Shown here piece by piece: positions 8,323 through 35,231 of a stretch of DNA of 64,000 nt. A program made the position numbers and the translations under genes. The stretch is from an uncultured Planctomycetaceae bacterium. GTDB lineage: Bacteria > Planctomycetota > Phycisphaerae > SM23-33. Location: contig CAZHEH010000007.1 in NCBI GenBank assembly GCA_964531695.1, forward strand, positions 34,121 to 98,120. Reading direction: 5' to 3'. Position 1 is the stretch's first letter. Each line of letters starts with the position of its first letter. The notes beneath the pieces were generated by a model. It ran no database searches and was not told where the DNA came from. It saw only the letters and a list, made by a program, of their open reading frames with translations.

Positions 8323-8853
8323 ATGCGATGTGAAACCTGCCAGTCGATGATCTCCGAATCGCTTGACGAGCGCCGCGCGTTGACGCCCGCCGCCCGGCGC
8401 CACGCCGAGCAGTGCCCGGATTGCGGTGCGTTCCTGGACGCCTCCCGCGAGTTGGAGGATCGGCTCCGCGCCGCCGCCGACCTCGCGCCCGCACCGGCCG
8501 GGGCGCGACGCCGCACGCCCGTGCTGCGCTTCTGGCGTTGGGCGGGGCCCATCGCGGCGGCCGCGTGCCTGGTGTTGGGCGTATCGCTGTGGCTGTCCCG
8601 CAACGGGGCGCCGGAGCCGCCGGGGGATCGGGCCGGGCCCGGCGGCGAGGTGGCCGCCCCGGCGCAGCCGTCCGCGTTCGGGGCGCCCCGGTCCACGATC
8701 GACACGACCGGAATGGCCGTGGCCCGCGTCGCCACGCAGCCGGTCCGGCGGGAGCTGGAGTTGCTCCGCGCGGACGCCGCCGCCGCGGCCGAGGCGGTCA
8801 TCGACTGCATCGAACTGTTTCCCGCGCGCCAACCGGCGGACCGCGACGGCTGA
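8323..8853 (+). CDS. Anti-sigma factor, zinc-finger (CxxC…CxxC) type with one TM helix
   Basis: N-terminal CETCQ…CPDC motif (zf-HC2-like) and TM segment WRWAGPIAAAACLVLGVSLWL. It lies immediately downstream of the ECF sigma gene. Confidence 0.65.
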   Translation: MRCETCQSMISESLDERRALTPAARRHAEQCPDCGAFLDASRELEDRLRAAADLAPAPAGARRRTPVLRFWRWAGPIAAAACLVLGVSLWLSRNGAPEPPGDRAGPGGEVAAPAQPSAFGAPRSTIDTTGMAVARVATQPVRRELELLRADAAAAAEAVIDCIELFPARQPADRDG

Positions 8854-10900: not shown

Positions 10901-12058
10901 TCAGTCCGTGTCCCGCGTCAGGATCTGAAGGTACGCGTCGTATGCGTAGACGCGGTCGCGCTGCCGCCCGGTGGTCTCGCGCAGAATGCCCGCTTGCTGG
11001 AGCGTGTCAATGGCCTTGCCCGCCGTGGGCTTGGTCGTATCCAGCAGCTCGACGGCCGCGGGCAGCGTCAGCACCGGTCGGGTGGCCAGGCGCTCCAACA
11101 GCCGGATCGCGCTGAGCGTCGCCCGGCGGTCCTCCACGAGCGTCCGCCGATCCCGCGTCAGCAGGGCGAACAGCCGCTGGGCCGTGGCGACCGCGTCGTC
11201 GGCCGCCTCGCGAACGCACTCCAGGTAATAGACCGTCCATCCCTCCCAGTCGCCTTCCGTCCGCACGCCCGTGAGGCGACGATAGTACTCCCGCTGGCGA
11301 TGCCGGAACGCCACGCTCAGGTACAGCAGCGGCGCGTCGAGCAAGCCCCAGTGCTCCAGCAGCAGCGCGATCAGCAGCCGCCCGATCCGGCCGTTGCCGT
11401 CGAGGAACGGGTGGATCGTCTCGAACTGCACGTGGGCCAGCCCGGCCCGGATCAGCGGCGGCAGCGGGTCGTCCGCGTCTATCCATCGCTCCAGCGAGGA
11501 CATCGCCGCCGGCACCTCCTCCGGCGGCGGGGGCACGAAGGCCGCGTTGCCGGGGCGCCTGCCCCCGACCCAGTTCTGCGAGCGGCGAACCTCACCCGGC
11601 CGCTTCTGGACGCCCCGGGCCCCGGCCATGAGGCGATCGTGGGCCCGGCAAAGCAGCCGCGTGCTCAGCGGCAATCCCCGCGGGCGGGCCATCTCGCGCC
11701 GTGCGTACGACAGCGCCTCGACGTAGTTGCAGACCTCCTCCACGTCCTCCGGCCGGTCGGTCTGCTCCGTCGCCTCGAAGGCCAGCACGTCGCGAAGCGT
11801 GGCCTGCGTGCCCTCGATCTGGGAGGAGATCACGGCCTCCTTGCGGACGAAGCCGTAGAGGAACCAGTCGATGCTAGGCACCATCGAGCCGGCCACCGAG
11901 AGCCGCCCCAGCGCGGCCTGTGCTTCCGTAAGCAGGTCCGCAAGCTCGTCGTCCACGACCAGCGGTGGCTTCGTGGGCGGAAGGGGATGGGGCACGAACG
12001 TCCGGACGGTCTCGCCGCCCGCCGCGCTCGTTCGGTATGCTCCGGTCTGACGCGCCAT
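10901..12058 (-). CDS. Fic family protein (AMPylase fold) with C-terminal winged HTH
   Basis: Canonical Fic motif HPFLDGNGRIGR, N-terminal Fic_N-like region and a C-terminal wHTH (GKAIDTLQQAGILRETTG). Confidence 0.85.
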   Translation of the reverse strand: MARQTGAYRTSAAGGETVRTFVPHPLPPTKPPLVVDDELADLLTEAQAALGRLSVAGSMVPSIDWFLYGFVRKEAVISSQIEGTQATLRDVLAFEATEQTDRPEDVEEVCNYVEALSYARREMARPRGLPLSTRLLCRAHDRLMAGARGVQKRPGEVRRSQNWVGGRRPGNAAFVPPPPEEVPAAMSSLERWIDADDPLPPLIRAGLAHVQFETIHPFLDGNGRIGRLLIALLLEHWGLLDAPLLYLSVAFRHRQREYYRRLTGVRTEGDWEGWTVYYLECVREAADDAVATAQRLFALLTRDRRTLVEDRRATLSAIRLLERLATRPVLTLPAAVELLDTTKPTAGKAIDTLQQAGILRETTGRQRDRVYAYDAYLQILTRDTD

Positions 12059-12091
12059 GTCCAGTCAAGGGCCTTCACCTGTAAGCCATGC

Positions 12092-12142
12092 TAGTAAAGC
12101 ATTCTTTACTAACGTCTGCCGTTAGTCAAGGTTCCTTTACTA
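12092..12142. promoter_or_regulatory. Two tandem palindromic operator-like sites TAGTAAAG-N4-CTTTACTA (12092-12111) and TAGTCAAG-N4-CTTTACTA (12123-12142)
   Basis: Read directly from the sequence in an AT-rich stretch. They sit about 35-85 bp upstream of the Fic start and at the head of the intergenic region preceding the portal gene. Centre-to-centre spacing is 31 bp. Confidence 0.45.
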
Positions 12143-12379
12143 AAGAAGTCCGCGTCGGCCGTCCCCGCAGCCCCCACGGCCGGGGGACAAGGCCCACATT
12201 GCCCGCGCGACGCGGATGTGCGCACAGGCGTTCCTCCCCTTCGCGCGGCTCGGCCGATTTTTCGTCATTTTGCTTAAACCCTATTCAGGCAAGACTTGCA
12301 CTCGTTCCGGCCCGGCCGTGTGCCGCGTCTGTGCGCGCGCCACGCGGCGCGCGGCGGGGGAGGTCGAGGAGACGACGCA

Positions 12380-14023
12380 ATGGCCTTCGACCTGACGAAC
12401 TTCCAAGACCCCGACCTCAGCAGCGACTACGTCCAGTACCTCGTCGAGCACGAGGCGCCGGATCGGGCCCGCCGGCTCGCCCGGGCTTGGGACTACTTCG
12501 CCAACCCGACCCGCCCGCTGAGCCGGACGCTCGCCGACGGCGGCGGAACCAGCGCCCGCCCGTACGTGCAGGCGCAGGAGCAGGGCCTCCCCGCACGCAT
12601 CACCGGCCTCAACCGACTCGGATCGCGGACCCGCGAGACGAACCTGAGCCGCAAGGAAGTCGTCATCGAGAACGACATCGCCTGGCGGGTTCAGACGATG
12701 GTGGATTTCCTCTTCGGGCGTCCGGTGCGGGTGCGTTCGCTCGCGGCGGACGCGAATCTGGCGGCGACGATCGAGCAGGTCGTCGCGACGCTGCTGGAAG
12801 ACAGCGGCGGCGTCGGCTTCTGCCAGGAAGCGGCCCTGTACGGGGCCGTATACGGCTTCGTGGACATCGCTCTCCGGACCCCGGCCGGCGGATCCGCCGT
12901 GTCCGGCCCCGCCCTGCCCAGCGCGGCGGGTCGCGGCGCGGGCGGTCCCCTTCCCGCCGACGCGCCACGCCGGCCGGGGCATCTCAACAACAACGCGCCC
13001 GACGCGGGCGCACAGACCGAGAATGCGGCAGGACCGCCCGGGCGAGCCCGGCCTGAACCGCGACTACAGCGGGCCCTGCAAGCGGCCCGCATGATCCAAC
13101 TGGAGGCCCTGGAGGCCCCCCGGGTCCTGCCCATTCTCGCCGAGGACGACTGCCGCCGCATCCGCTACTGGGTGCAGGTCTACCGCAAGCGTCCGCCGCG
13201 GCTGGCCCGCTCGCGGCGCCCGTGGTTCCTGCCGGGGCGCTCGCACGCCGCCCGCCCCGAGGAGGTCGAGGTCGTCGAGATTCTCGGCCCGACCTGGTGG
13301 CAGCGCTACGAGGACCGCCGCCTGGCGGCCGAGGGCCCCAACGCTCTCGGGCGGCTGCCCGTCGTGCACGTGCAGAACGTCGCCCAGCCGGGGCGCTACG
13401 AGGGGCTCAGCGACGTGCTGCCGCTGATTCCGCTTCAGGATGAGCTGAACACGCGGCTGAGCGACCGGGCGAGCCGCGTGACGTTCCAGTCGTTCAAGAT
13501 GTACCTGGCCAAGGGCATCGACGACTTCCTCGAGCGGCCGATCGCGCCGGGACAGATGTGGGCGACGCACAACCTCGACGCCCGCATCGAGGAGTTCGGC
13601 TCGGACACCGGCTCGCCCAGCGAGGACGCCCACATCGAGCAGGTCCGCCGGGCGATGGACAAGGTCTCCGGCGTCACGCCGCTGGCGGCGGGGCTCATCG
13701 AGGGCAACGTCGGCCACCTCACCAGCGCCACGGCGCTGAAGGTCGTCCTGAGCGGCCTGCTGGCCCGCACGGCCCGCAAGCGTCTGACGTACGGCGCGGG
13801 TCTGGCCGGCGTGGTCGAGCTGGCGCTGGCGTGGCTGGACCGCACCGGCGCGCTGGCCACCCGCCCCGACGACCGGCGGATCGAGATCGACTGGCCCGGC
13901 GTCCTGCCGGAGGATGAGTCCGAGCGGCTCCGCAACGCGGTGGTCAAGTCCCAGCTCGGCGTCCCGGCCGGGCGCATCCTGGCCGAGCTCGGTTACGGCC
14001 CGACCCCCAACGACGTGCATTGA
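12380..14023 (+). CDS. Phage portal protein (probable)
   Basis: 547 aa from MAFDLTNFQDPDLSSDYVQYLVEHEA. It has a portal-like size and an N-terminal R-rich/DYF region, and it sits in the portal-scaffold-capsid gene order. Confidence 0.55.
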   Translation: MAFDLTNFQDPDLSSDYVQYLVEHEAPDRARRLARAWDYFANPTRPLSRTLADGGGTSARPYVQAQEQGLPARITGLNRLGSRTRETNLSRKEVVIENDIAWRVQTMVDFLFGRPVRVRSLAADANLAATIEQVVATLLEDSGGVGFCQEAALYGAVYGFVDIALRTPAGGSAVSGPALPSAAGRGAGGPLPADAPRRPGHLNNNAPDAGAQTENAAGPPGRARPEPRLQRALQAARMIQLEALEAPRVLPILAEDDCRRIRYWVQVYRKRPPRLARSRRPWFLPGRSHAARPEEVEVVEILGPTWWQRYEDRRLAAEGPNALGRLPVVHVQNVAQPGRYEGLSDVLPLIPLQDELNTRLSDRASRVTFQSFKMYLAKGIDDFLERPIAPGQMWATHNLDARIEEFGSDTGSPSEDAHIEQVRRAMDKVSGVTPLAAGLIEGNVGHLTSATALKVVLSGLLARTARKRLTYGAGLAGVVELALAWLDRTGALATRPDDRRIEIDWPGVLPEDESERLRNAVVKSQLGVPAGRILAELGYGPTPNDVH

Positions 14024-14044
14024 CCCCCCAGGAAAGGACACGCG

Positions 14045-14581
14045 ATGAACGACCCGACACAAGACACGCCGACACCGGAGGAAGCCCAACCGGACAGCCC
14101 CGGGCTCGCCCCCGTGGCCGAGTCCATCAAGTACCGCCGCCGAGCGCAGCAGGCCGAGAGACGCGCCGAGGAGCTGGAGCGGCGGCTCGCCGAGCGGGCG
14201 GACCAGCTCGCCACGGCCGAGGCCCAACGGGACGAGGCGGCCCAGCAACTCGCCGCGACCGAGAACCGCGCCGCCGCCGAGCGGATGCTCACGGAGGCGG
14301 GCGTGGCGGACCTGGAGGCGGCGTCGCTGCTGTTGGCCCGGCGGGTGGACCTCGCCCAGCCGGCCGAGGGCGATTCGCTCCGCACGGCCGTCGAGCACCT
14401 CCTGCTGGACAAGCCGTTCCTCCGCGGCGCCGCGCCGCAGTTGCCGCCGACCTCGGCCGGCGAGCGCGGCGACGCTCCGCTCGGAGCGCAGCTCGCCCAG
14501 GCGGCCGACCGCGCCGCGCGGCAGGGCGATCGGCGCAGCATCGCGCATTACCTCCGGCTGAGGCGCCAAGCGGCGAGCTAG
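14045..14581 (+). CDS. Phage scaffolding-like protein (acidic, coiled-coil)
   Basis: 178 aa with a long charged helical segment RRAQQAERRAEELERRLAERADQLATAEAQRDEAAQQLAA. It is located between the portal and the capsid gene. Confidence 0.5.
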   Translation: MNDPTQDTPTPEEAQPDSPGLAPVAESIKYRRRAQQAERRAEELERRLAERADQLATAEAQRDEAAQQLAATENRAAAERMLTEAGVADLEAASLLLARRVDLAQPAEGDSLRTAVEHLLLDKPFLRGAAPQLPPTSAGERGDAPLGAQLAQAADRAARQGDRRSIAHYLRLRRQAAS

Positions 14582-14751
14582 CCGACCGGGCCGTCGCGTG
14601 GGGCATGTGCGAGAGGCCCGTGCCACGCATGCGCGATTGCTCGAGCCGCAGCCATCGGATCGATGGGCCCAGGCGGGCCGAGATTCCCCGGCCGTGCCGG
14701 GAAGGACGTACCCCACACGAACACGAACCTCGAACCTTCAAGGAGCACGAC

Positions 14752-15912
14752 ATGCCATTCACCGGAAAAGCAACCTACTCCGCCGGCAGCGCCCTGCCGG
14801 AACTGGCCGAGGACGTCGGCGACATCATCGGCATCGTCTCGCCGTATGAGACGCCGCTGCTGGACCGCCTCGGCGACGCGGCCCGACCCGCCACGAGCAC
14901 CTACCACGAGTGGCTCGAGGACGAGCTGCTGCCCAACACCGACGCGATCGACGACAACGACTGGACCGACCCGGTCTCCGATCAGACCTTCGGCGTGGAC
15001 CACCCCGAGCGGTTCCGCGTCGGCGACCAGGTCCGCCCCGCGGGCAGCTCCGAGCTGATGCTGGTGGCCGCGACGGACGCCGTCGCCGGCACGATCACCG
15101 TCGACCGCGGCTACGGCGGCACCGCGCCCGAGGACCTCGCCGACGACCAGGTGCTGCACATCCTCGGCAACGCGGCCCTGGAGGGCGACGACGCCCCGGC
15201 CGCCCGCTTCACCCACCGCGTCCGCAAGGGCAACTGGACGCAGATCTTCACCGCCGCGGTTCGCGTCAGCGGCTCGGACCTCGCCGTCCGGAAGCTCGCC
15301 GTCGCCGACGAGCTGGACTACCAGAAGCAGGAGCGGCTCCGCGAGCTGCTGCGCGACCTGGAAAGCACCGTCATCAACGGCACGACCTCCGCGGCTTCGC
15401 CCCAGGGCTCGGCCACCGTCCGCCGCACGATGAAGGGCATCATCCCCTCGCTGACGACGAACGTGTTCCGGCCGAGCGTTGGCGGCTTCCCGAACGACGG
15501 CGACCTGACCGAGACGCAGCTCAACCTCGCCCTGCGCCGCATCTGGGAGGGCGCGTCGAGCCGCATCGACACGATCGTGGTCGGCGGCTACCAGAAGCGC
15601 CGCATCAACTCTTTCATCACGTCGGGGCGCTCGTACGGCCCGGACGACGTGACGTACCGCGAGCTGGTGAGCATCTACGAGAGCGACTTCGGCGTCTGCC
15701 GCGTCGTGCTGTGCCGGTCCGTCCCGGCCGACACGGTGCTGCTGCTGGACAGCTCCCGCGTCGAGGTGCTGCCGCTGGCCGGGCGGAGCTTCCACTTCAA
15801 GCCGCTCAGCGCCGCCGGCGACTACGAGGCCGGCGAGGTCATCGGCGAGTACACGCTGGAGCTGCGGAACGAGAACGCCCACGGCGTCATCACCGGGCTG
15901 GACATCTCCTGA
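14752..15912 (+). CDS. Phage major capsid protein (probable, ~386 aa)
   Basis: ATG at 14752 follows the RBS AAGGAGC. It has a capsid-protein size and position, with a C-terminal region (…RVVLCRSVPADTVLLLDSSRVEVLPLAGRSFHFKPL…) typical of capsid-family proteins. Confidence 0.55.
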   Translation: MPFTGKATYSAGSALPELAEDVGDIIGIVSPYETPLLDRLGDAARPATSTYHEWLEDELLPNTDAIDDNDWTDPVSDQTFGVDHPERFRVGDQVRPAGSSELMLVAATDAVAGTITVDRGYGGTAPEDLADDQVLHILGNAALEGDDAPAARFTHRVRKGNWTQIFTAAVRVSGSDLAVRKLAVADELDYQKQERLRELLRDLESTVINGTTSAASPQGSATVRRTMKGIIPSLTTNVFRPSVGGFPNDGDLTETQLNLALRRIWEGASSRIDTIVVGGYQKRRINSFITSGRSYGPDDVTYRELVSIYESDFGVCRVVLCRSVPADTVLLLDSSRVEVLPLAGRSFHFKPLSAAGDYEAGEVIGEYTLELRNENAHGVITGLDIS

Positions 15913-15985
15913 CCCGCGCGGGCCGACGGTGCGGCGGGTCGATGGCCGGCCCGCCGCGCCGCTCCCGCCCGAGGAGGACGAGCCG

Positions 15986-16639
15986 ATGACATCCTTCTGC
16001 ACGGACAGAGACCTGCTCGCGGCCGAGCCGCTGATCTACCTCAGCGGCGGCTTCCCGGCCCAGGCCCCGGCCGCGGGCGACGACGGCGAACTCGACGGCA
16101 CGAGCTTTACCTCGGCCGGCAGCGACTTCGCCGCCGCGGGGGCCGCCCCCGGCATGGTGCTGCGGGTCGCCGACGGCCCGCAGGCGCAGCGAAGGGCCCT
16201 GGAGGTCGTCTCCGTCGAGGGCCCGACGGCACTGACGGTGTCCGTGCTCCGCCCGGATGCCGAAGCCGACGCCGTGCCGCCGGTCGCGGGCACCGGGCTT
16301 CACTTCGAGCTGCGGACCTTCGCGGCGCAGATCGCCTCCGTCTCGGCCACGCTGGCCGAGAAGCTCCGCACCGCGTCGGAAGCGGCCGGCATCTCCGCGG
16401 CCGAGTTCGCGGACTCGGCCCAGCTCGCCCGGTGCTGTGCGGCCGGCGTGTTGGCGAGCGTCTACACCGCCCGCGCCGAGAACGCCGCCGCCGAGGACGC
16501 CAACTGGACCAAGGCCGAGCACTATCGCCGCGTGTTCCGCCGGAGCCAGGTGCGGCTCCGACTGGCGGTGGACGCCGACTCCGACGGCACGGCCGAGAGC
16601 ACGCGAACGCTGGGGCACGTCGCCCTGCGGAGGGTCTGA
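15986..16639 (+). CDS. Phage-like structural module protein, function unknown
   Basis: Start MTSFCTDRDLLAAEP. First of a chain of translationally coupled ORFs after the capsid gene. Confidence 0.45.
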   Translation: MTSFCTDRDLLAAEPLIYLSGGFPAQAPAAGDDGELDGTSFTSAGSDFAAAGAAPGMVLRVADGPQAQRRALEVVSVEGPTALTVSVLRPDAEADAVPPVAGTGLHFELRTFAAQIASVSATLAEKLRTASEAAGISAAEFADSAQLARCCAAGVLASVYTARAENAAAEDANWTKAEHYRRVFRRSQVRLRLAVDADSDGTAESTRTLGHVALRRV

Positions 16640-16641
16640 GC

Positions 16642-17076
16642 GTGACTTCCACCGAAACCGCCATCTGCCGGGACGCGGCCGCGGCGCTGGACGCCTCGGG
16701 CCTGTTCGCCGAGACGCACGTCGGGCTCGACGCGGCGAGCAATGCCGTGCCGCGGGCGAGCGTCGCCGTCGAGGGCCGCGAGGTCTTCCTCAGCGACGAC
16801 CGCCCCAACGGCCTGTGGGTCCGCCTGCGCCTGCGCGTGTTCGTGCGGGACCGGGCGGACAACGTCGGCGACGGCGTCGCCCGCACGGCCGACCTGTGCG
16901 CCGCGGCGGGCGCGGCCCTGCTGGCGGACCCGAAGCGCGGCGGGCTCTGCCGGGACCTGCCCGTCGGGCGGGCGACGGAGTTGGGCGCGACGGACGCGGT
17001 CACGGGCGTGCGCCGCCCGGCCGTCGAGGCCTCGCTCGCCGTCCGCTGCCACTACGAGACGGAGGACGCGCCATGA
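16642..17076 (+). CDS. Phage-like small structural protein (GTG start)
   Basis: GTG is 2 nt after the previous stop, with GGAGGG about 8 nt upstream. The protein has no internal Met and ends in an ATGA overlap with the next gene. Confidence 0.4.
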   Translation: MTSTETAICRDAAAALDASGLFAETHVGLDAASNAVPRASVAVEGREVFLSDDRPNGLWVRLRLRVFVRDRADNVGDGVARTADLCAAAGAALLADPKRGGLCRDLPVGRATELGATDAVTGVRRPAVEASLAVRCHYETEDAP

Positions 17077-17480
17077 CGCGCTACGCTCGCATCGAATCGC
17101 TCCGCTTCGGCGCGACGGCGCTGCCCCTGCCGATCTCCGTCCGAGTGACGCGCCGGGCGGGGGTCCGCGCCGCCGCCGGCGCGGGCGACCGCTACGCCTC
17201 GAGCGTCGAGTTCGACGGCTGCCGCGTGGAGGCGGAGGTCCGGCTCCGCGGCACGGCCGCCGCCGAGAACCTCGCGCCCGGCGAGGAGGGGACGCTCGCC
17301 TTCACCGTCTCGGCGATGCGCGCGGGCGCGAGCGGGCGGAGCGTCAGAATCTCGGGCGCCGTCCTCACGAGCATCGAGATCGCGTACGAGCAGACGTCCG
17401 CCGCCGTCGCGGTGCTGCGACTCACGGCCGAGTCGGACGGCGGCGCGCACGACCCGCACGCCGCGGAGGATGACGAATGA
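17073..17480 (+). CDS. Phage-like small structural protein
   Basis: MTRYARIESLRFG…. ATGA overlaps on both sides. Confidence 0.45.
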   Translation: MTRYARIESLRFGATALPLPISVRVTRRAGVRAAAGAGDRYASSVEFDGCRVEAEVRLRGTAAAENLAPGEEGTLAFTVSAMRAGASGRSVRISGAVLTSIEIAYEQTSAAVAVLRLTAESDGGAHDPHAAEDDE

Positions 17481-31689: not shown

Positions 31690-32170
31690 GTTGAAGAATG
31701 GGCTCCGTGGCCAGCTCGAACGGAACGGCCGGGCCCCCAGGAGCGGGAACGCAGATCCCGCCGGGAGCGAGTTTCCGCGACGCAGCGCAGGCCGTTCCGG
31801 CGATCGCAGCAGGAACAGCTTCTTCAACGGGCTGCTACGCGAAGGCATCGGAGATACGCCCGGAGACAGGCAGCGATCACGCGCCCACCGCCTCCGGCGC
31901 GGAGAAGGCCCGGCCGCCGCAGCGCAGCGAAGGCCCCGTAGGGGCCGTAAGAAGGTAGCCCCGCCCGTGCGGTCTGAAGCGAGTCCCGGCGCGTCCGGGA
32001 TGAGTCGAAGGCCGGAGGGCGGGGACAAGGTCACGCCGCAGCGCCCAGGAGCCCCAGCGGGGCGACAGAGCCGTGGATCGCCGCTTCCGTCGCCCCTGCC
32101 GGGGCTCCCAACTCGGGCAGGCGGCTCTCGGCCCCCGGTCTGACGACCGGGGCTACCTTCTGCCGCCGCT
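31690..32170. repeat. ~580-nt non-coding region with two long-range inverted repeats: CCGTTGAAGAA (31698-31708) / TTCTTCAACGG (31819-31829), and GAAGGTAGCCCCG (~31953-31965) / CGGGGCTACCTTC (~32150-32162)
   Basis: Read from the sequence. There is no credible ORF, because the track ORFs here are GC-artefacts. It lies immediately upstream of the Rhs C-terminal fragment. Confidence 0.3.
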
Positions 32171-32226
32171 GCCGCTGCGCCGTTTGCCCTTGCCGATTCC
32201 GGCCGTGCGCGGGATAATCCCCGGCC

Positions 32227-33300
32227 GTGATGGGGAACGCGTCATCTCGGGGCTTCGCCCAAGGCCGACCGACCTGCGCGCCCCCGGCACAGCCCCTCGA
32301 GGTCCGCACGAACGGCGACGGCGAATCCGACTGGGAAAACGGCATCGTCTACTGCGGTTACCGCCAGGACCCCGAAAGCGGCGCGAACGGACAGGGCATC
32401 ATGCATGTGCGGCATCGGCCGTATCTGCCCCCGCTCGGCCGCTGGGCCAGCCGGGATCCGCTGAATCAGGATGTTGCCGGCGGCGGGTATCACGATGGGA
32501 TGGGGTTGTATACATATGTACGTTCAATCCCCATTGGTGCGACTGACCCCACGGGCAACGTCTTGGTAGTGATGGCGGGTTGGGCACAGAGCTTTGAATA
32601 TATGCAAACATTGGCAGATGCGGTTGGTGACAGCATTCTCAGCCGACTGTCCCCATATGATGCTCCTGCTGACTTGGTTCTTGGGCAACGTTTTATATCC
32701 GAGGGCCCGCTCATAGATAATGGGCACTATGACAAGCCTCCTGCCGGGTCATCGGAAAAAGAATATATCTCTTATAGCAGGAGCCGCATGAGCTATGATG
32801 ATGCGGTTCGGTATCATTATGAGCAATACGTCCAACGGAAAAGGGACGACCCGTGTAGCCTGGAACAATTTGTCGCCATCGGGCATAGCTCTGGGGCCTC
32901 TGCCATAGCAAATAATCTGGCAGCGGGGCATCTCACTGATCCTGATTTCCCGCCTGCCTTTCTTGGCCTGATCGATCCTGTCTTAGGCGAACATGACCTT
33001 CGGTCAGTCACACACGACGGATGGGGCGTCTTCGTCTGGTATCAAGAAAACCCACTGGACTTCCATGGCTCACCTGTCCAAGGTGCCGATAAGAATTGGC
33101 TTATTGAAGGCAAGAATGTTACTCCTGCCGGTGAGACTAGTCGTGAGGATGTTGGTCATATGAATATTGTTAGCGATCAGAGAGTACTCTCCGAAGTATC
33201 TCAAGGAGCCGCTGCCTATTACCATGTAAGGGTATATATCGAGTCCAAGAAAGCACCGGGCAAGGTACCTTATGATACGCCGGAGGAGGGAAGATGGTGA
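32227..33300 (+). CDS. Orphan Rhs C-terminal module: last Rhs repeat plus the DPxG boundary, fused to an alpha/beta-hydrolase (lipase/phospholipase-type, GHSxG) toxin domain
   Basis: VYCGYRQDPESG…RHRPYLPPLGRWASRDPL…GGYHDGMGLYTYVRSIPIGATDPTGN is the Rhs core end. It is followed by a domain with the GHSSGAS nucleophile motif and downstream Asp/His residues. Local GC drops. Confidence 0.7.
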   Translation: MMGNASSRGFAQGRPTCAPPAQPLEVRTNGDGESDWENGIVYCGYRQDPESGANGQGIMHVRHRPYLPPLGRWASRDPLNQDVAGGGYHDGMGLYTYVRSIPIGATDPTGNVLVVMAGWAQSFEYMQTLADAVGDSILSRLSPYDAPADLVLGQRFISEGPLIDNGHYDKPPAGSSEKEYISYSRSRMSYDDAVRYHYEQYVQRKRDDPCSLEQFVAIGHSSGASAIANNLAAGHLTDPDFPPAFLGLIDPVLGEHDLRSVTHDGWGVFVWYQENPLDFHGSPVQGADKNWLIEGKNVTPAGETSREDVGHMNIVSDQRVLSEVSQGAAAYYHVRVYIESKKAPGKVPYDTPEEGRW

Positions 33301-33812
33301 TGAAATTGACGATGACGTGTTCTATTGTGTTTATTGTGGCGACCATGCTGATTGGGTGCGACACGGGGCATGTTGAGCCATGCGAGAGATGCTCATCTCC
33401 GCAGGCGTTAATGTCGGCGTTGTATCACAAATTTGAGTCAGAGGAGTATCCTGATCTTGAGTCCCTGATTCATCCCCGACTACGTGGGCAGTGGAAGGAG
33501 TTTGTCTATTGGGACGGCCGAATTAGGCGCGAATTCCCGAAGGCTCTCGGCACAGAATACACAAGTCCGATAGATAACCTTCGAGAAGAAGTATGCCATG
33601 GGAAGGGGCAGTGGAAGATCGAAGCACAGAGGGATCTGGCGCGTGTGAGGATCGGAGAGTCAGGCACTTCACTGGTTCTCAGAAGACATTACGGGCAATG
33701 GTACATCGTGCTATATGAAACCTGGGAAGTCGCTGAGTATATGTCGCGATTGAGGAAGGAAATCTCGAAGGTAGAGTATCACAGACTAAGCGATATGAAT
33801 CGCAGGGACTAA
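33294..33812 (+). CDS. Lipoprotein, candidate immunity protein for the Rhs lipase toxin
   Basis: MKLTMTCSIVFIVATMLIGC lipobox. It overlaps the toxin gene's 3' end and has low GC like the toxin. Confidence 0.45.
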   Translation: MVMKLTMTCSIVFIVATMLIGCDTGHVEPCERCSSPQALMSALYHKFESEEYPDLESLIHPRLRGQWKEFVYWDGRIRREFPKALGTEYTSPIDNLREEVCHGKGQWKIEAQRDLARVRIGESGTSLVLRRHYGQWYIVLYETWEVAEYMSRLRKEISKVEYHRLSDMNRRD

Positions 33813-33816
33813 CAAC

Positions 33817-33837
33817 GTGTCCAGTCCGTAGGGACAC
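33817..33837. terminator. Hairpin GTGTCC-N9-GGACAC directly after the immunity gene stop (terminator-like, no clear U-tract)
   Basis: Read from the sequence. It shares the GGGACAC core with the inverted repeats at 34022 and 34299. Confidence 0.3.
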
Positions 33838-34021
33838 ATAGTTAGCCCGCATTATTCGTGAAGCTGCGCGAAACGCACGATTGTGACGGGTTTTGGCATG
33901 CCGTCGAGGCGAGAGGGGTGGCTGAGGCGCGGCGAGGCGGCGGAAGGGAGCAATCGGCGGCGCTGAGAGGCCAACATCCGCCCCGACCCGTGGCGGAATC
34001 TTGGGAATCTTGGAATCTCGC

Positions 34022-34317
34022 TTGGGACACCATACGGTTTTTTGCTTGCGTGGAGATGTAATAGCGGTAGGATGTTTTGCATGCCGAGACTCGCACGAGC
34101 AGTGATTCCGGGCCGGCCCCACCACGTCACGCAGCGCGGCAACCGTCGCCAGCAGACGTTTTTCGGCGAGGACGACTATCGCGCGTACCTGTCGCTGCTG
34201 GGCCGGTGGTGCGCGGCGCACGAACTGCGGGTATGGGAAGCTGCTGGGCCGCCCCCTCCTGCCCGGCCGACCCGGTCGGCCTCGTACGCGAGAGAAACAA
34301 ACCGTATGGTGTCCCAG
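34022..34317. mobile_element. Degenerate REPtron-like element: 19-bp perfect inverted repeats TTGGGACACCATACGGTTT (34022-34040) and AAACCGTATGGTGTCCCAG (34299-34317) flanking a truncated RAYT/IS200-like transposase fragment
   Basis: The inverted repeats were read from the sequence. The enclosed ORF begins MPRLARAVIPGRPHHVTQRGNRRQQTFFGEDDYRAYLSLL, the conserved N-terminus of REP-associated tyrosine transposases, but it lacks the HuH and catalytic Tyr regions. A GGAATCTTG x3 tandem repeat lies just upstream (33997-34020). Confidence 0.5.
34081..34260 (+). pseudogene. Truncated REP-associated tyrosine transposase (IS200/IS605-like TnpA) N-terminal fragment
   Basis: Only about 50 aa of homology. 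The downstream track ORF continuation is unrelated sequence. Confidence 0.5.
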
Positions 34318-34514
34318 GATAACAGGATAACCATGAAGGAAGAGATCACATGTGACGCGGCTGGGAACTTGCAAGTGCCACCCGAGGCCGTATCGTGTAC
34401 CGGGAAGAAGTGTTCTGGGGATGCGACGTCCTCGCCGAAGGAGTAGTTATGATTATCAGCTATGCCTGTGTGGCAGTTTGTGACAGACCATCAATGGATG
34501 TGCCTCGTACAAGA

Positions 34515-35231
34515 ATGCGCCGGCACGGTCTCGCAATGCCCGCAGGACCGCTCCAACTTCGCCTGGTTCTGCTGATTGGGGCGGCTCTCTGTCTTGGCTT
34601 GCACGGCTGCTCGGACACGCGAGATGGTAGCCGCCGCGCTGGAGGTACAGAGCCGAAGAGGCCTGCTTCTGCCCAAGAACAGGCGGTTGCGGAAACGCCG
34701 ATGTTAACCGGCCTAGAGATTTGGGAACCGGAGGGCGCGAGTGTCGAAGGGCGGCCATCGCAATCAGGCCAGCTCACTGTGGCGCAGCTTGCCCAGGAAA
34801 CGCTGCTTGACCTGAGCGATGATGGGGCCTCAGTCGTGGCCAATCCCAAAATATCATTCAGCGTTACGAAGAAATCGGCCGAACAAAGGGTGTGGCTGGA
34901 GATCGTCATGCGTGTTCCGACTGGGGAGCCATTTTCGGATGATAAGGTGTATTGGCTTGCCTCTCGGAATATTGGCAAGGTGTACTTGGCAGGTGGGTCA
35001 CGCGGCCCGAGCGGACTCCCTTACCGTGTTGAGGAAACGATCAGAATACACACAAAGCTTGGCCGCGCTGGTACGGATGTGAAGCGCTTCACGGAAGCCA
35101 ACGGCGTCATTTGCGGATCATTGTACGGACGGTCAATGAAGCCGAATGGGCATGGGGCCTGCCTGTTGGCAAGCTTCACCATCCCAATCGCCGCACCGGA
35201 CCGCACGTGGGGGAACAATGTGGTCGAGTAG
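34515..35231 (+). CDS. Secreted / lipoprotein-like hypothetical protein (low-GC island)
   Basis: MRRHGLAMPAGPLQLRLVLLIGAALCLGLHGC signal region; start uncertain among 34395/34515/34533. Confidence 0.4.
   Translation: MRRHGLAMPAGPLQLRLVLLIGAALCLGLHGCSDTRDGSRRAGGTEPKRPASAQEQAVAETPMLTGLEIWEPEGASVEGRPSQSGQLTVAQLAQETLLDLSDDGASVVANPKISFSVTKKSAEQRVWLEIVMRVPTGEPFSDDKVYWLASRNIGKVYLAGGSRGPSGLPYRVEETIRIHTKLGRAGTDVKRFTEANGVICGSLYGRSMKPNGHGACLLASFTIPIAAPDRTWGNNVVE

Follow-up and report, generated by a model that had tools for sequence, protein, structure and literature searches.

The phd/doc module, whose toxin Doc has the Fic fold, is a known case of type II toxin-antitoxin autoregulation. Among the class II Fic enzymes whose C terminus carries a winged helix-turn-helix (wHTH), CccR is, to our knowledge, the only one with a mapped operator, and the structure of another, SoFic, was deposited in 2008 as that of a "transcriptional regulator." In Yersinia pseudotuberculosis, the class II Fic toxin CccR (YPK_0951) has its HTH at the C terminus and lowers the activity of its own promoter 3.3-fold (PMC9755527). 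The DNase I footprint of this protein covers AGATAATCAT-N26-ATGATAATCT, with inverted repeats near the -35 and -10 elements, and binding needs the dimer (PMC9755527), in which the HTH domains are reported to be 70 Å apart. The SoFic dimer (SO_4266, mloA) of Shewanella oneidensis binds within the 100 bp that precede its own start codon, as described in a preprint that defines no site or operator and tests no regulation (bioRxiv 10.64898/2026.07.09.737422). For CbFic2 (CBU_0822) of Coxiella burnetii, binding of DNA by the HTH promotes dimerization and switches between AMPylation and deAMPylation; the protein bound random DNA with high affinity and without evident sequence specificity, no specific operator is known for it, and its proposed role is that of a secreted effector acting on host histone H3 (PMC10628234).

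Here, we analyzed a stretch of DNA of 64 kb (the window), in which the fic gene at 10901 to 12058 on the minus strand encodes a class II Fic enzyme of 385 aa (Pfam Fic_N, 1.1e-25; Fic, 1.4e-22). The catalytic motif H216PFLDGNGRIGR227 of this protein conforms to HxFx(D/E)GNGRxxR, and the inhibitory motif S78-S-Q-I-E82-G83 lies within the Fic_N match (residues 41 to 119), on the same chain and N-terminal to the Fic core; the residues of both motifs are invariant in the orthologue alignment. Matches to PDB sequences included 7cb8 (6.9e-40) and SoFic 3eqx (1.9e-32), and the full-length fold matched 7cb8, the Fic protein of Mycobacterium marinum, with a TM score of 0.80 and SoFic with one of 0.72. 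The AF2 model (pTM 0.81; pLDDT 88 to 96 over residues 300 to 360) showed a wHTH at residues 315 to 372, composed of helices at 315 to 324, 332 to 339, and 343 to 355 and a wing at 359 to 372, in addition to a long helix at residues 37 to 59 of the monomer; SoFic-like enzymes form homodimers by way of an N-terminal helix. Weak MarR_2, HTH_20, and IclR Pfam matches at residues 314 to 369 fell below the curated thresholds. Thus, the C-terminal winged HTH ascribed to the Fic protein in the initial annotation is found in the AF2 model, with Pfam HTH matches at sub-threshold level only, and it is the feature that marks the SoFic-like class II Fic enzymes. We propose this domain, encoded at 10904 to 11131 on the minus strand, as the operator-binding domain; the codons of its recognition helix (residues 343 to 355, KPTAGKAIDTLQQ) lie at 10994 to 11032 on the same strand, and K343 among them is predicted to determine specificity at half-site bases 3 and 4. 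The family is very large, with at least 8,000 homologues in our search, all of them significant; the best 120 of these were 68 to 81% identical and nearly all of 384 to 389 aa, and the closest protein relatives were from Planctomycetota (Pirellulales and Phycisphaerae).

Upstream of the fic ATG (12058, minus strand), two 20-bp palindromes were read in the sequence. The one at 12092 to 12111, TAGTAAAGcattCTTTACTA, is a perfect 8+4+8 palindrome (TAGTAAAG-catt-CTTTACTA), and the one at 12123 to 12142, TAGTCAAGgttcCTTTACTA, has 7 of 8 pairs matched (TAGTCAAG-gttc-CTTTACTA). They are 31 bp apart from start to start and lie 34 to 84 nt upstream of the fic ATG, in close agreement with the 35 to 85 bp noted initially, and the GC content across 12092 to 12142 is 0.37, compared with 0.70 for the whole window. 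The original description of two near-identical 20-bp palindromes 31 bp apart was therefore borne out by the sequence, as well as by randomization of the 64-kb window, in which 0.02 palindrome matches are expected by chance and the observed count was reached in 0 of 100 shuffles. Both palindromes are unique in the window, and the proposed search for other copies of the motif, run on these 64 kb, returned no further match even at up to 3 mismatches. That they occupy the only AT-rich stretch of the region did not hold, given that 12256 to 12306 in the same intergenic gap has a GC content of 0.39 and that a low-GC island occurs at 32 to 35 kb.

In addition, 12061 to 12080 holds a third, degenerate site, the halves of which are 3 nt apart (AGGTGAAG-gcc-CTTGACTG, read in the direction of fic). 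This site is weak in the window, falling below the threshold of the template-plus-symmetry score described below, and it aligns with the better third sites of the closest relatives (TGGCAAAGctgcCTTGACCG in L081 and TGGGAAAGctgtCTTGACCG in L084), which have a 4-nt spacer, suggesting that the window site has lost one spacer base. The description of the sites as a pair was thus incomplete, the set being a three-site array. Viewed from fic, the putative distal operator (12123 to 12142, minus strand) is centered at -74 from the ATG and reads TAGTAAAG-gaac-CTTGACTA; the putative middle operator (12092 to 12111, minus strand) is centered at -43 and reads TAGTAAAG-aatg-CTTTACTA, which is perfect; and the putative, degenerate proximal operator (12061 to 12080, minus strand) is centered at about -12, over the 5' untranslated region (UTR) and the ribosome-binding region.

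A search of 11900 to 12500 for sigma-70-like promoters returned a single match, on the minus strand and facing fic, with 9 of 12 consensus positions matched and a 17-nt spacer, while shuffled sequences gave an average of 0.0 matches; this call is a match to the sigma-70 consensus only, and planctomycete promoters are poorly characterized. The predicted -35 hexamer, TTGACT, lies at 12124 to 12129 on the minus strand, in the promoter-proximal half of the distal palindrome, and the predicted -10 hexamer, AAGAAT, at 12101 to 12106 on the same strand, in the center of the middle palindrome, which would place the start of fic transcription near 12094. The palindromes therefore overlap the predicted -35 and -10 elements of the gene's own promoter, as in the CccR type of arrangement. 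Just upstream of the array, a G+C-rich hairpin at 12154 to 12197 on the minus strand was predicted in the fold of 12050 to 12200, with the core CCCCC-acggcc-GGGGG at 12171 to 12186. A similar hairpin, CCCCGGCCGGGG, occurs in the same place in L081 to L084, and it may represent an insulating terminator or the boundary of a transferred fic unit.

To describe the distribution of the array, 80 genomic loci with Fic orthologues of 50 to 70% identity were fetched from more than 10 phyla, including Planctomycetota, Alpha-, Beta-, Gamma-, and Deltaproteobacteria, Bdellovibrionota, Chloroflexota, Spirochaetia, Acidobacteriota, Gemmatimonadota, Latescibacteria, and others, and 78 of them were scored for operators. 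Tandem palindromes were visible by eye within the 140 nt upstream of the fic start in nearly all loci. Autocorrelation of the 110 nt upstream of fic peaked when the shift was 31 (0.417, the background being ∼0.25) and again at 62 (0.337), and coding and far-upstream control regions gave no peak. Sites were then scored by template plus symmetry, as palindromy alone over three windows spaced at 31 bp often gave the wrong register, including in the window. With this score, at least two sites within -140 to +10 of fic were found in 62 of the 78 loci, three sites (the third 31 bp past the second) in 23, and four in 2, and the spacing between neighboring sites was exactly 31 bp in 80 of 89 cases. 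The control regions of most loci were free of sites; a few loci had one there, and only one locus had two. Across the 657 kb of fetched DNA, 66 of 67 high-scoring sites were upstream of fic, and the remaining one precedes a second copy of fic in L062. In that locus, the two fic copies are ∼4.7 kb apart and each follows an identical operator, TGGGCAAGatatCTTTCCCA, with the site of the second copy at about 8740 to 8760.

The position of the promoter elements within the array was also shared among orthologues. In 60 orthologous site chains, TTGAC at positions 14 to 18 occurred in 26 of 60 first sites, compared with 3 of 60 second and 2 of 23 third sites, and a -10-like hexamer occurred in 25 of 60 second sites, compared with 8 of 60 first and 1 of 23 third sites. 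The recurrence of this split, with -35 in site 1 and -10 in site 2, indicates that the promoter-in-operator design is a property of the family. The half-site types differ by clade, the main ones being TAGTAAAG, TAAGAAAC-GATC, TATTAAAG, and TAAGAAAG, and when neighboring palindromes were compared, outer and inner halves were all similarly conserved. In one locus, L031 (Povalibacter), repeats of ACATGTCG, ATGTCGAT, and ATCGACAT were observed upstream of the Fic-type palindrome, ∼80 to 125 nt before the fic start codon. Of these, ATGTCGAT is also the repeated 8-mer of those SoFic promoter fragments for which binding by SoFic has been shown.

Moreover, the bases that vary among the operators covary with the recognition helix of Fic. 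Out of about 385 alignment columns, that of K343, the first residue of the wHTH recognition helix, ranked top for association with half-site positions 3 and 4, and the next-ranked columns, V336 and G347, are also in the HTH. For instance, K343 was accompanied by GT in 42 of 47 loci and A343 in 0 of 11, F343 was accompanied by TT (4/4) and I, L, or P343 by AG (3/3), and I347 goes with C at half-site position 5. The K343 group has a mean identity of 0.59 within and 0.58 between groups and still keeps GT; being as divergent inside as between groups, it shows an association that is not simply one of overall relatedness. Only about 3 to 4 independent switches between lineages underlie the covariation, however, and common descent therefore accounts for part of it. 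Based on these sequence comparisons, K343 is predicted to read half-site bases 3 and 4; if this readout is true, K343A would shift the preference to TAAGAAAC-GATC-GTTTCTTA, and K343F to TATTAAAG.

Considering these results, the palindromes most likely constitute a phased array of operators at which Fic, through its C-terminal wHTH, negatively regulates its own gene. The initial proposal of dimeric-repressor operators that autoregulate fic is thus strongly supported on comparative grounds, as the predicted promoter faces fic, the array follows the fic orthologues, the operator bases covary with the recognition helix, and CccR and SoFic provide precedents. We infer that Fic itself would bind its own promoter, as a dimer or a higher oligomer with two HTH domains per palindrome, and that the effect would be repression. 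The locus would then be a single-gene, self-regulating unit with three 20-bp sites, each made up of two 8-bp half-sites and a 4-bp spacer. Because 31 bp corresponds to three helical turns, all sites would be on the same face of the DNA, and the exactness of this spacing suggests contacts between proteins bound at neighboring sites. With the distal site over the -35 element, the middle one over the -10 element, and the weak proximal one over the leader, occupancy would exclude RNA polymerase and keep the level of Fic low, a negative feedback that would limit a potentially toxic AMP-transferase.

The autorepression of CccR and the binding of SoFic to its own promoter make the proposed circuit one of a known type. 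The window Fic resembles CccR in several respects: it is a class II Fic enzyme, its inhibitory motif is N-terminal and its HTH C-terminal, it is encoded by a single gene without an antitoxin, and palindromic DNA near the -35 and -10 elements (predicted ones here) of its own promoter would be the target, bound by a dimer, in a logic of negative feedback. In contrast, the CccR operator consists of two 10-bp inverted repeats 26 bp apart, compared with two to three 20-bp palindromes of different sequence 31 bp apart at this locus, and CccR is a T6SS effector adjoining effector-immunity genes, whereas the neighbors of fic examined in the window (ymdB, a DUF6263 gene, an ECF sigma factor, and the phage head module) are of other kinds. 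The window Fic matched the fold of 7xux, which we take to be CccR from its release date and title, with a TM score of only 0.56. SoFic has the same domain order, a close fold (1.9e-32; TM 0.72), and repeated 8-mers upstream; for example, its fragment F1 contains repeated ATGTCGAT 8-mers, including the palindrome ATGTCGAT-tga-ATCGACAT. It differs in that the two proteins are only 24 to 27% identical in the structural alignment, the 8-mer has a different sequence, and the repeats are about 39 to 40 bp apart rather than 31. CbFic2 shares the class II Fic architecture with a C-terminal HTH and differs in lacking a specific operator and in its fold match to the window Fic (TM 0.54). As for phd/doc, a toxic Fic-fold enzyme would likewise be kept low here by repression of its own promoter at palindromic operators; however, there is no separate antitoxin or repressor gene, and the inhibitory helix and the DNA-binding domain are on the same polypeptide. 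A two-gene toxin-antitoxin module was also considered and rejected, since fic has no adjoining antitoxin gene and no partner gene is conserved, with no flanking ORF family common to more than 4 of the 80 loci. The literature searched contained no operator consensus for this subfamily, no strict 31-bp phasing across phyla, and no predicted specificity residue.

The initial annotation also raised the possibility that the palindromes gate expression of the phage-like head module that starts with the portal-like gene (ATG at 12380, plus strand), and they might do so by themselves or while serving fic as well, as a divergent operator. The palindromes do lie in the 321 bp that separate fic from the portal gene, no evident regulator belonging to the module is present there, and the closest fic relatives (81% and 79% identity) are found among ParB-methylase, Prim-Pol, DUF3987, and HARE-HTH genes, a mobile-element setting. 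These relatives lack the portal gene, however, and the portal, scaffold-like, ymdB, and DUF6263 genes of the window were present in 0 of the 80 fic loci; ymdB, which is downstream of fic in the window, was beside fic in none of them. Thus, the array is independent of its neighbors. Similarly, DNA homology to the closest relatives has the fic stop codon as its exact starting point and extends no farther than 12144 to 12185 (12185 for L081), such that the shared DNA comprises the fic ORF and 90 to 130 nt upstream, with the operators and the short G+C-rich hairpin and nothing on the phage side. The absence of the neighbors from the 80 loci and the end of homology short of the portal gene remove the basis for gating of the particle module. 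In addition, 238 nt separate the palindromes from the portal ATG, and the sigma-70 consensus search of 11900 to 12500 returned nothing promoter-like on the plus strand. The head-module promoter is better sought in the second AT-rich patch (12256 to 12306, GC 0.39), a candidate that lies 75 to 125 nt upstream of the portal ATG and is not part of the DNA in common with other fic loci. Taken together, control of the particle module by the palindromes is very unlikely, and the array is better assigned to fic.

The head module itself (12380 to 17100) encodes a portal protein (phrog_104), a protein resembling a scaffold, and a major head protein (phrog_1328, 1.8e-68), and a tail terminator is weakly matched; no terminase gene lies ahead of the portal gene, and fic occupies that position. 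A portal-based search of viral contigs returned one locus, which comes without upstream DNA. The large ORFs sampled in 17.4 to 28.8 kb had no PHROG or Pfam match. Farther along, 32000 to 35000 is a low-GC island (0.53 to 0.61, compared with 0.70 for the window) in which the ORFs at 32227 to 33300 and 33294 to 33812 had no Pfam match, and it may be a recently acquired segment.

To approach the question from the motif, a metagenome collection was scanned with a degenerate two-site pattern, for which we estimate a chance expectation far below one match. Results revealed 28 double-operator loci, 22 of which had a fic orthologue starting 16 to 36 nt after the pattern, while the other six (L105, L091, L107, L096, L086, and L099) had no adjoining orthologous fic, indicating that the link between operator and fic is strong and not absolute. 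The exact pair TAGTAAAGaaaaCTTTACTA-N11-TAGTAAAGaagtCTTTACTA was observed at 1665 to 1715 of L091 and 2969 to 3019 of L107, which are two copies of one AT-rich (GC 0.31), phage-like sequence in which the pair directly precedes a run of small genes of unknown function; no fic or wHTH homologue was found in the fetched DNA of these two loci, and other mobile elements could thus use the Fic repressor. The pair in L096 (894 to 944) precedes a small ORF by ∼110 nt, and a ParE-like toxin gene comes after this ORF; that in L105 (2537 to 2587) lies ∼40 nt past the stop codon of a different Fic-domain gene of 441 aa with its own HTH, and those in L086 and L099 are in unclear contexts. A stand-alone wHTH homologue was found in none of the six.

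The six matches away from orthologous fic show that the operator can exist, and its motif function or persist, in other contexts, and they make another binder possible, such as a global or stress regulator of the host in place of Fic. Against such a factor, the array accompanies fic across more than 10 phyla in which no other gene is conserved, no Fic column outside the recognition helix predicts the variable bases as well, and the 64-kb window holds no further copy. We rank this reading directly after gating of the head module and give it similarly little credence, with Fic remaining the favored binder. One specific candidate, the Xanthomonas-type LexA box (TTAG-N6-TACTA), was dropped because its spacing differs and the sites track fic.

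The palindromes could also act as RNA hairpins in the fic leader, through attenuation, stability, or translation control, and the minus-strand transcript of 12050 to 12200 is indeed predicted to fold stably (-67.2 kcal/mol; z = -4.05), with the third site overlapping the ribosome-binding region. However, the predicted -35 and -10 elements are inside sites 1 and 2, meaning that these two sites would not be transcribed. It is the sequence of the half-sites, and not pairing alone, that is conserved; the mismatches within palindromes are not biased toward wobble pairs (48 sense-strand G-U, 48 A-C, and 212 others); and nothing at the RNA level would call for an exact 31-bp phasing. Scans for Rfam families and tRNAs, covering the region and the window, gave no match. 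An RNA-level role is thus more doubtful still than the two preceding explanations. Finally, promoters of high-GC genomes are AT-rich and short palindromes can arise randomly, yet a chance AT-rich promoter sequence with fortuitous symmetry is effectively refuted by the result of 0 in 100 shuffles, by the autocorrelation peaks, and by an architecture that 62 of 78 orthologous loci share, down to the exact spacing of 31 bp.

Beyond autorepression of fic, a broader reading can be offered speculatively, although we regard it as improbable in its entirety. Fic might act as a cooperative oligomer on one face of its promoter, with occupancy setting both the oligomeric state and the balance between AMPylation and deAMPylation, so that the promoter DNA would serve as an allosteric scaffold in a horizontally moving one-gene toxin-regulator cassette, and other mobile elements would plug their genes into the Fic repressor. 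The idea of a cooperative oligomer in place of independent dimers derives from the exact 31-bp phasing that two to four fully conserved palindromes show in more than 10 phyla; the facing half-sites of neighboring palindromes are 19 bp (about 65 Å) apart, which is close to the HTH separation of 70 Å given above for the CccR dimer. That of other elements plugging into the repressor derives from the operator pairs on phage-like DNA (L091 and L107) and beside the ParE-like module (L096).

For the annotation of the window, these findings assign the palindromes to fic and set them apart from the adjoining phage-like head module. The resulting operator model consists of a 20-bp palindrome of the form T-R-N-N-N-A-A-S, N4, and the complement, repeated at 31 bp, with the -35 element in site 1, the -10 element in site 2, and K343 as the predicted specificity residue. 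It is a concrete proposal for a very large subfamily of Fic proteins, every part of which is directly testable. Thus, the wHTH tail of class II Fic enzymes, the role of which has been unclear since the SoFic structure, is provided here with an operator model.
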